Below, one piece after another: positions 12,756-13,496 of a stretch of DNA of 64,000 nucleotides. Location: NCBI GenBank assembly GCA_013239625.1, contig MU054413.1, forward strand, positions 11,703,109-11,767,108. Reading direction: 5' to 3'. This DNA is from Lama guanicoe. Its lineage: Eukaryota. The notes beneath the pieces are model-generated. The model made no database searches and had not been told where the DNA came from. It worked only from the letters and a program-made list of their open reading frames with translations. The stretch's first letter is position 1. Each line of letters starts with the position of its first letter. The translations under genes and the position numbers were made by a program.

Positions 12756-13496
12756 TAGCAAATTCTTTTTTTTTAAATTATTTAATATTCCTTCTAATGT
12801 ACCATAGGAATTACTTCCCCAAAATGTTAATCACAGCTGGATTGAAAGAGTATTTGAGAAATGTGGCAATGTCATTTATGTAAGTAAATCACACTGTAAG
12901 TCTGCTGGAGAGCCAAAGGGATTTGCCTTCGTGGAATTTGAAACAAAAGAACAAGCACCAAAAGCTACTGAGGCAGGACAAGAACTTTTAGTCAGAACGG
13001 AGTGGGGAGGAGGGAAGGAACAGAAGTAGCTCTGAAGATGCAGAATGCCTGACTCCCAAATCACAAGTTTTAAAAATTTCTCAGAAAGACATCATTAGAA
13101 AAGAAGCTTCAGAAGTTTGCAAATAAATAAGTAAATACTTAAAAAAAGAAAGAAAAAAAGAAAAGAAAAAGAAAACCCCCAAACAAACAAACAAAACAAA
13201 GGTATTTATAAATTTAAGGTTAGGATTAGGTAAATAAGGTTTTCTTTTTTCTGAACTTATGTCTTTATTTCTTAACTTGATATTTAATTTACAGTTAGAG
13301 GTCTCTACTGAAGAAGAAAATGATACTGGAGATAGAAAAGATGGATCCCTCTTGAAAGCAAAAAGGAAGCATAAGAAAAAACATAAAGAGAGGCATAAAG
13401 TGGGAGAAGAGGTTCTACCACTGCGAGTACAATCAGAGTAAGTGAATGGTACAAATTATATTGTTGGCAATTGACACACTTCATAGCAAACTCTTT
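12756..13496 (-). mobile_element. L1-mediated retrocopy of an RNA antisense to LARP7 (likely miR-302/367 host transcript), including TSDs
   Basis: TSD tagcaaattcttt (12756-12768) / tagcaaactcttt (13484-13496); T9 at 12766-12774 is poly(A) on the - strand; ATTAAA on - strand at 12781-12786; TTT|AAAG L1-EN-type site. Confidence 0.75.
12808..13437 (+). pseudogene. LARP7-homologous fragments: an RRM1 exon (12808-12972), the 3' part of a later exon (about 12991-13130) and the [12 protein letters not shown] exon (13295-13437), with LARP7-sense intron ends retained
   Basis: [68 protein letters not shown]...[48 protein letters not shown] match LARP7; flanked by catag|, |gtaaat, ttacag|, |gtaagt; stops and frameshifts in the middle block. 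Confidence 0.9.

Follow-up and report, generated by a model that had tools for sequence, protein, structure and literature searches.

A retrocopy of the miR-302/367 host RNA in an intron of MACROH2A2

The window (the whole 64-kb stretch of DNA that was analysed) carries at 12769-13483, on the minus strand, an L1-type retrocopy of the antisense miR-302/367 host RNA. The insertion lies in an intron of MACROH2A2, ~210 nt upstream of the exon at 12470..12559 and on the same strand as the gene; TAL-repeat matches found beside the macroH2A.2 match were sums of weak repeats with no passing stretch and were disregarded. The features of the region are listed below, with parent positions referring to contig G000:C8284 (L011) and with L012 denoting a second copy in the same genome.

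12470..12559, minus strand: MACROH2A2 (macroH2A.2) exon, full-length match to macro-H2A.2 chains, E 2.1e-12
12756..12768, minus strand: target-site duplication (TSD), copy at the 3' end of the insert
12769..12774, minus strand: A-tail remnant, a short A-run after the poly(A) signal
12775..12985, minus strand: last exon of the miR-302/367 host RNA, antisense to the LARP7 RRM exon, 89% to parent 6271-6453
12985..12986, minus strand: splice junction, parent intron 5813-6270 removed, identical junction in L012
12986..13292, minus strand: short LARP7 intron (retained) and part of the next LARP7 exon, antisense, parent 5597-5812
13128..13187, no strand: simple-repeat insertion of ~60-70 nt, present in neither the parent nor L012
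13293..13437, minus strand: antisense copy of the LARP7 exon encoding KRKHKKKH, parent 5452-5596
13438..13483, minus strand: first 46 nt of the retrocopy, pri-miR-367 3' flank from the predicted Drosha cut, parent 5406-5451 (42/46)
13484..13496, minus strand: TSD, the copy flanking the insert's 5' end; the last base is a 1-nt microhomology with parent A5405

The parent contig was found by a search of the same genome, and the insert aligns to its positions 5405/5406-5812 and 6271-6453 at 84-89%. Rfam placed four miR-302 hairpins and miR-367 (5341-5408) on this contig, directly upstream of the insert-matching region, and the exon copy starts from 5452, which agrees with the statement in the initial annotation that miR-367 is the last hairpin of the antisense cluster and lies only tens of nt from this LARP7 exon. 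The template was the antisense host RNA and not LARP7 mRNA, since the 458-nt intron removed (5813-6270) is bounded by GT..AG on the miRNA strand, and both the short LARP7 intron and the start of the LARP7 intron at 13438..13483, read antisense, are kept. A processed pseudogene of LARP7 mRNA was likewise rejected because the A-tail is antisense, LARP7 intron sequence is kept and the removed piece cuts inside a LARP7 exon. The segment 12986..13292 terminates at the splice donor of the host RNA, and the last exon corresponds to E3 of Pan & Lin 2020 (PMC7692494). The removal of the downstream intron and the presence of an A-tail, both proposed in the initial annotation, were borne out, as were the GTAAGT donor at 13438-13443, the distance of 46 nt from there to the right TSD (13484-13496) and the homology of 13444-13483 to the start of the LARP7 intron. 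The simple repeat at 13128..13187 is judged from the sequence to have arisen after insertion of the retrocopy.

The two TSD copies are 13 nt long, within the ~7-20 nt typical of L1-mediated processed pseudogenes, and 12/13 identical. On the minus strand an ATTAAA at 12786-12781 precedes the A-run at 12774-12769, with a short spacing, and the TSD start reads TTT followed by AAAGAG, a site resembling the TT/AAAA-like consensus of the L1 endonuclease. Sampled words from 12500-13800 were present at 0.90-0.94 in 14 public runs (4 organisms, 7 studies), which rules out an assembly artefact; whether other species have the junction was gauged by word share only, and RNA runs, with shares of 0.04-0.12, gave no evidence of it. 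At the Rfam gathering score, no miRNA hairpin was found in the 64-kb window, which upholds the earlier statement that the insert lacks a miR-367 or miR-302 hairpin. The sole Rfam match was a tRNA-like SINE head at 26804-26875, and the abundant tRNA-derived SINE of the window is presumably of a camelid type. A LARP7 donor at parent position 6282 reads GT in the parent and GC in both the window (12974) and L012, an A to G difference on the copied strand that could reflect the ancestral state, editing or chance. A PDB search with the KRKH exon, made to polarise changes, gave 0 matches.

The 5' end of the insert, a second copy and promoter-initiated controls

The 5p start of miR-367 was set at 5346, and that of the miR-373-like hairpin described below was set in the same way, following what we take to be the miRBase positions. 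Folded, pri-miR-367 has A5346 paired to U5403 and G5404-A5405 as the 2-nt overhang, placing the predicted cut at 5405|5406. The insert begins at 5406, or at 5405 counting the 1-nt TSD microhomology, and the alignment thus ends 0-1 nt from the predicted cut and the 3' end of pre-miR-367, the position that the initial annotation had anticipated. Beyond this 5' end only 10 of the next 30 nt match the parent, against 42 of 46 within it. The lower stem runs on to 5417, so that the junction 5405|5406 falls within the stem, and a CNNC motif lies at +18 from the cut (at +17 for the miR-373-like hairpin). A splice acceptor at the junction was rejected, the nearest AG dinucleotides ending at 5396 and 5410, not at 5405. 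Drosha cut sites in this genome are predictions, with sequenced support, from human, for the miR-367 site only: among the 3' offset RNAs of human ES cells, moR-367-3p is reported as the most abundant (~200 per million), 97% of 3'-moRNA reads share a common 5' end, and the parent from 5406 reads TGGA, as does the start of human moR-367-3p (PMC4378994).

The same genome holds a second retrocopy with this 5' end, L012 (2126-2815, minus strand, G000:C1015), which carries the same splice and starts at 5405-5407, 0-1 nt from the predicted cut. Its flanks share no homology with those of the window insert, its TSD is different (degenerate, 12/16) and its poly(A) site lies ~40 nt further on. The unrelated flanks led us to reject a segmental duplication of one insertion, and derivation of one copy from the other was rejected on the different poly(A) sites and on shared sites that look parent-made. 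Of the changes seen across 584 gap-free columns, 46 occur in the window insert alone, 48 in L012 alone and 22 in the parent alone. Synonymous to non-synonymous counts in the LARP7 frame are 10/7 at sites separating the copies from the parent, compared with 10/24 and 7/26 at copy-private sites, which indicates that the two copies share no pseudogene history. The four E3 sites shared by the copies are not fully clean in this respect, as outgroup copies take the parent's side at two of them, one in a T-run and one mixed. With an own-branch distance of 0.09 and a neutral rate near 2e-9, the miR-367-end copies would be ~45 million years old. The region after miR-367 is held by only these 2 copies, both starting at the cut (3/3 candidates scored).

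Three other copies of the host RNA served as internal controls. L013 (2930-3400), L014 (3240-3720) and L015 (3040-3670) are E1-E302-E3 retrocopies of the T1 type, and 3/3 start at parent 4629, 33 nt past the TATA box, and continue through the miR-302a hairpin, which shows that on such short RNAs the enzyme usually reaches the template end, unstopped by an upper stem. A G stands just before +1 in these copies at a position where the parent has T; it is possibly cap-derived, although confounded with the TSD. A further match (L016 3299-3471, G000:C55226), old, at 74%, limited to the last exon and without a clear tail, was left unclassified and was not counted.

Retrocopies downstream of a miR-373-like hairpin and other clusters

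A miR-371/373-like cluster was located in the same genome (mir-290 family, 71 bits, above the cut-off), with a mir-373-like hairpin at 48.5 bits, below the Rfam cut-off of 69; the parent lies at G000:C3322:3189286, minus strand (L044 4287). The 3' flank of this hairpin has at least 35 dispersed retrocopies (L072-L099, L110, L113, L122, L128-L133), a lower bound from a search that reached 1.1 kb, with fully spliced host-RNA copies whose first exon lies beyond that outside its scope. L072 and L133 were excluded as duplicates of L075 and L132, and L065 (C9228) for lack of a match to the family profile; two tiny contigs 96% identical to the parent (C41095, C21155) were counted as assembly duplicates. 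When both miR-371/373-like hairpins with their flank were used as query against the genome, all 28 non-self matches started at query 611-636, 27 of them at 611-621, and none contained a hairpin; the fold predicts the 3' fragment of the miR-373-like hairpin to start at query 614. Across the cut, the parent was matched at +1 by 23/26 copies and at -1 by 5/26 (L072 and L073 left out). A-tails and long TSDs accompany these copies. Among the 15/28 with a TSD score >=7, of which two picks may be spurious, the offset from the cut was 0 in nine, +1 in three, -1 in two and -3 in one; 14/15 thus end within 1 nt of the predicted cut, and none has a lone extra G.

The family was also searched with the 3' half of one copy, avoiding selection on the 5' end, and removal of the parent and two duplicates left 33 loci. 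The predicted cut (profile position <=5) was reached by 26 of these, none extended into the last hairpin, and the probability of 26/33 ends falling in a 9-nt window by chance is 3e-46. The 5' query added two further copies that extend to the cut, giving 28 in total. The initial annotation had proposed looking for independent copies with the same 5' end in other mammals; L012 provides one in the same genome, and the pattern recurs in the 26/33 copies of this second cluster. A tree built from 25 copies plus the parent has a star-like shape, with terminal branches of ~0.11 and the parent among the four closest copies, and two poly(A) sites are in use in the family.

The other 7/33 loci stop short of the cut, one at 23, five at 306-321 and one at 442. 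The 5' ends of three short copies (L110, L113, L128) lie 3-5 nt beyond the base of an internal hairpin ~55 nt long, on its 3' side, which indicates that structure-linked ends do occur. Splicing of the short copies to an upstream exon was rejected, no match being found in 5.6 kb of upstream parent. L129 and L131 also begin near the start of these three, a place that may be a stall site or a second nuclease cut.

The tail of miR-106a-363 yielded no retrocopy in the search of the same genome. A decayed 83% copy of part of miR-17-92 (L136 520-1917, G000:C4144), with a 500-nt insertion, keeps four hairpin regions (miR-19a, 20a, 19b, 92a), with mir-19 and mir-92 passing the Rfam cut-offs; its 5' end, ~18-21 nt past the predicted miR-18a cut, does not coincide with a Drosha site, and no clear tail is present. 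If RNA-derived, it shows passage through whole hairpins, its RNA origin being uncertain. This miss and the minor class of internal-hairpin ends count against generality of the Drosha-end pattern.

Proposed hairpin excision, rival explanations and known retrocopies

The first base beyond the miR-367 hairpin is where the insert begins, and very probably it was copied from the 3' fragment that Drosha released on excising this hairpin. This reading draws on the TSD, the A-tail, the removed intron, the end at the overhang position, L012 and the 26/33 copies of the miR-373-like family. In the proposed sequence of events, pluripotent or early-embryo cells would be the setting in which Microprocessor cuts the cluster's final hairpin; the downstream piece, retaining the severed 3' part of the miRNA-bearing intron, would have its next intron spliced and be polyadenylated. 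The uncapped 5'-phosphate fragment would evade decay for a time, and L1 ORF2p may then bind the tail, prime reverse transcription from a TT/AAAA-like target site and run through to the physical 5' end of the RNA. The suggestion of the initial annotation that a Microprocessor 3' fragment was the template is thereby supported as to end position and recurrence, and the 5'-end chemistry of the template and the role of Drosha are what we infer from them.

5' truncation is common in L1 products, and the initial annotation had named it as the ordinary alternative. Random truncation would suit the 7/33 miR-373-family copies that end elsewhere, but the two miR-367 copies would share a Drosha-site end by chance with a probability of 6e-5 under a uniform model that allows any of 10 sites, or of ~1e-5 under length-biased models, and the clustering of the miR-373-family ends given above refutes it for the main class; as an explanation it is extremely unlikely. 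Ends could also mark structure instead of cleavage if the L1 reverse transcriptase stalled at the hairpin of an uncut pri-miRNA, and this is in keeping with the three short copies beginning beside an internal hairpin and with the location of both main junctions within stems. Stalling, however, should leave ends at the base of the stem (for miR-367, 5417-5418 or the bulge at 5409; for the miR-373-like hairpin, +8), whereas the real ends are sharp to a single base and fall at the overhang position, 8-12 nt into the stem. The three controls traverse the miR-302a hairpin, and the miR-17-92 copy, if it is RNA-derived, spans four hairpins of its own cluster; stalling is therefore considered improbable.

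An internal promoter, from which a capped transcript would start just after the last hairpin and be copied as an ordinary full-length retrocopy, stays alive as a rival because the miR-367 loop is TATA-like (AATACAAA; Rfam consensus AUAUAAA) and lies ~31 nt upstream of the junction. By geometry, however, any 3p cut has a loop ~30 nt before it, the miR-373-like loop is without a TATA box, and two unrelated promoters would both have to hit the overhang base. Adapter ligation requires an uncapped 5' end. It was by adapter ligation that moR-367-3p was cloned (PMC4378994), and cap-type G appears scarce at -1, with 0/2 in the miR-367 copies and 7/28 in the miR-373 family (near the background of 0.19; 0.46 expected at the 33% cap-G rate reported for SVA (PMC3287187); P 0.02, cap-G not being universal). 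Such a promoter appears quite improbable. The miR-373-side family could alternatively be a self-copying short repeat that begins at the hairpin end by chance, with the miR-367 pair as a separate coincidence; its dozens of copies are alike in sequence and age, and it may carry an existing anonymous repeat annotation. Yet an A-tail is missing from the source copy, whose first 9 nt make up the lower stem of the hairpin, the star-shaped tree contains no expanding subfamily and groups the parent with the four most parent-like copies, and two different poly(A) sites were used, which makes a self-copying repeat very unlikely.

Retrocopies of MIR302CHG have been reported in placental mammals as types T1 (E1-E302-E3) and T2 (E1-E3) (Pan & Lin 2020, PMC7692494). 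These have the parental host RNA, the last exon, the L1 hallmarks and neutral decay in common with the window insert, but they are described as beginning at the promoter and lacking the sequence between miR-367 and E3 (PMC7692494). The window insert, unlike T1/T2, is without E1 and E302, has no parent match upstream of 5405, keeps the 407 nt of intron and middle exon (parent 5406-5812) and starts at the Drosha 3' cut. Tables S1-S3 of that study contain no MACROH2A2 insertion and no camelid (PMC7692494). For primate mir-373 and mir-498 precursor retrocopies, the same authors suggest Drosha-made 5' ends, a likeness that extends to the miR-371-373 cluster itself (PMC7692494). The primate copies, however, are of the hairpin itself, with the 5' arm cut, the tail on the precursor, a length of 60-140 nt and 6 events (PMC7692494), whereas the copies described here derive from the hairpin-free downstream fragment, with the 3' arm cut, lengths of 550-1000 nt, a normal poly(A) signal and ~30 events in one genome.

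The RNA species proposed as template has been seen as RNA. PARE data show 5'-phosphorylated, polyadenylated 3' fragments of pri-miRNAs (Bracken 2011, PMC3141239), and these fragments and 3' moRNAs (Asikainen 2015, PMC4378994) would be the same species with the same 5' end. As reported, both peak in abundance downstream of a cluster's last hairpin, with moR-367-3p topping the ES-cell list (PMC3141239, PMC4378994); there they are transient RNA, and here they are fixed as germline DNA. On the other side, moR-373 is absent from the ES-cell offset-RNA list (PMC4378994), and the text of three PARE supplement files has 0 occurrences of miR-295/367/302/290. A literature search, mostly at listing level, found no 3'-fragment type of retrocopy. 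Retrocopies of the host gene were already published (Pan & Lin 2020); the window insert is real and well supported as an L1 processed pseudogene set apart from them by its template, probably a 3' fragment.

More broadly, it seems likely that a class of processed pseudogenes made from uncapped Microprocessor leftovers has gone unrecognised in mammalian genomes, and that the 3' fragments of two pluripotency clusters were frequent L1 passengers in this lineage (2 after miR-367, at least 28 after miR-373). They would form a fossil degradome of Drosha cuts at single-base resolution, tens of millions of years old, from fragments stable and abundant enough to meet L1 particles in germline-competent cells. 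If this is true, L1 copies cleavage products that are uncapped and non-coding right up to the exact 5' terminus, the tail alone sufficing in vivo, and an intron remnant that has been severed can undergo splicing and polyadenylation and survive rather than fall at once to 5'-3' decay. Clustered 5' ends of retrocopies could then be mined in any mammalian genome for ancient endonuclease cut sites, and such ends would also reveal miRNA clusters active in cells feeding the germline. The hairpin-free structure would explain why hairpin-based searches overlook copies of 3' fragments, and an origin from such fragments why they appear as odd intron-keeping LARP7 fragments or as an anonymous repeat. The retrocopies themselves appear to be non-functional and decaying neutrally, as a fossil record of cut sites. 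The window copy places its poly(A) signal (12769-12786) on the sense strand of the MACROH2A2 intron, ~210 nt before the exon.
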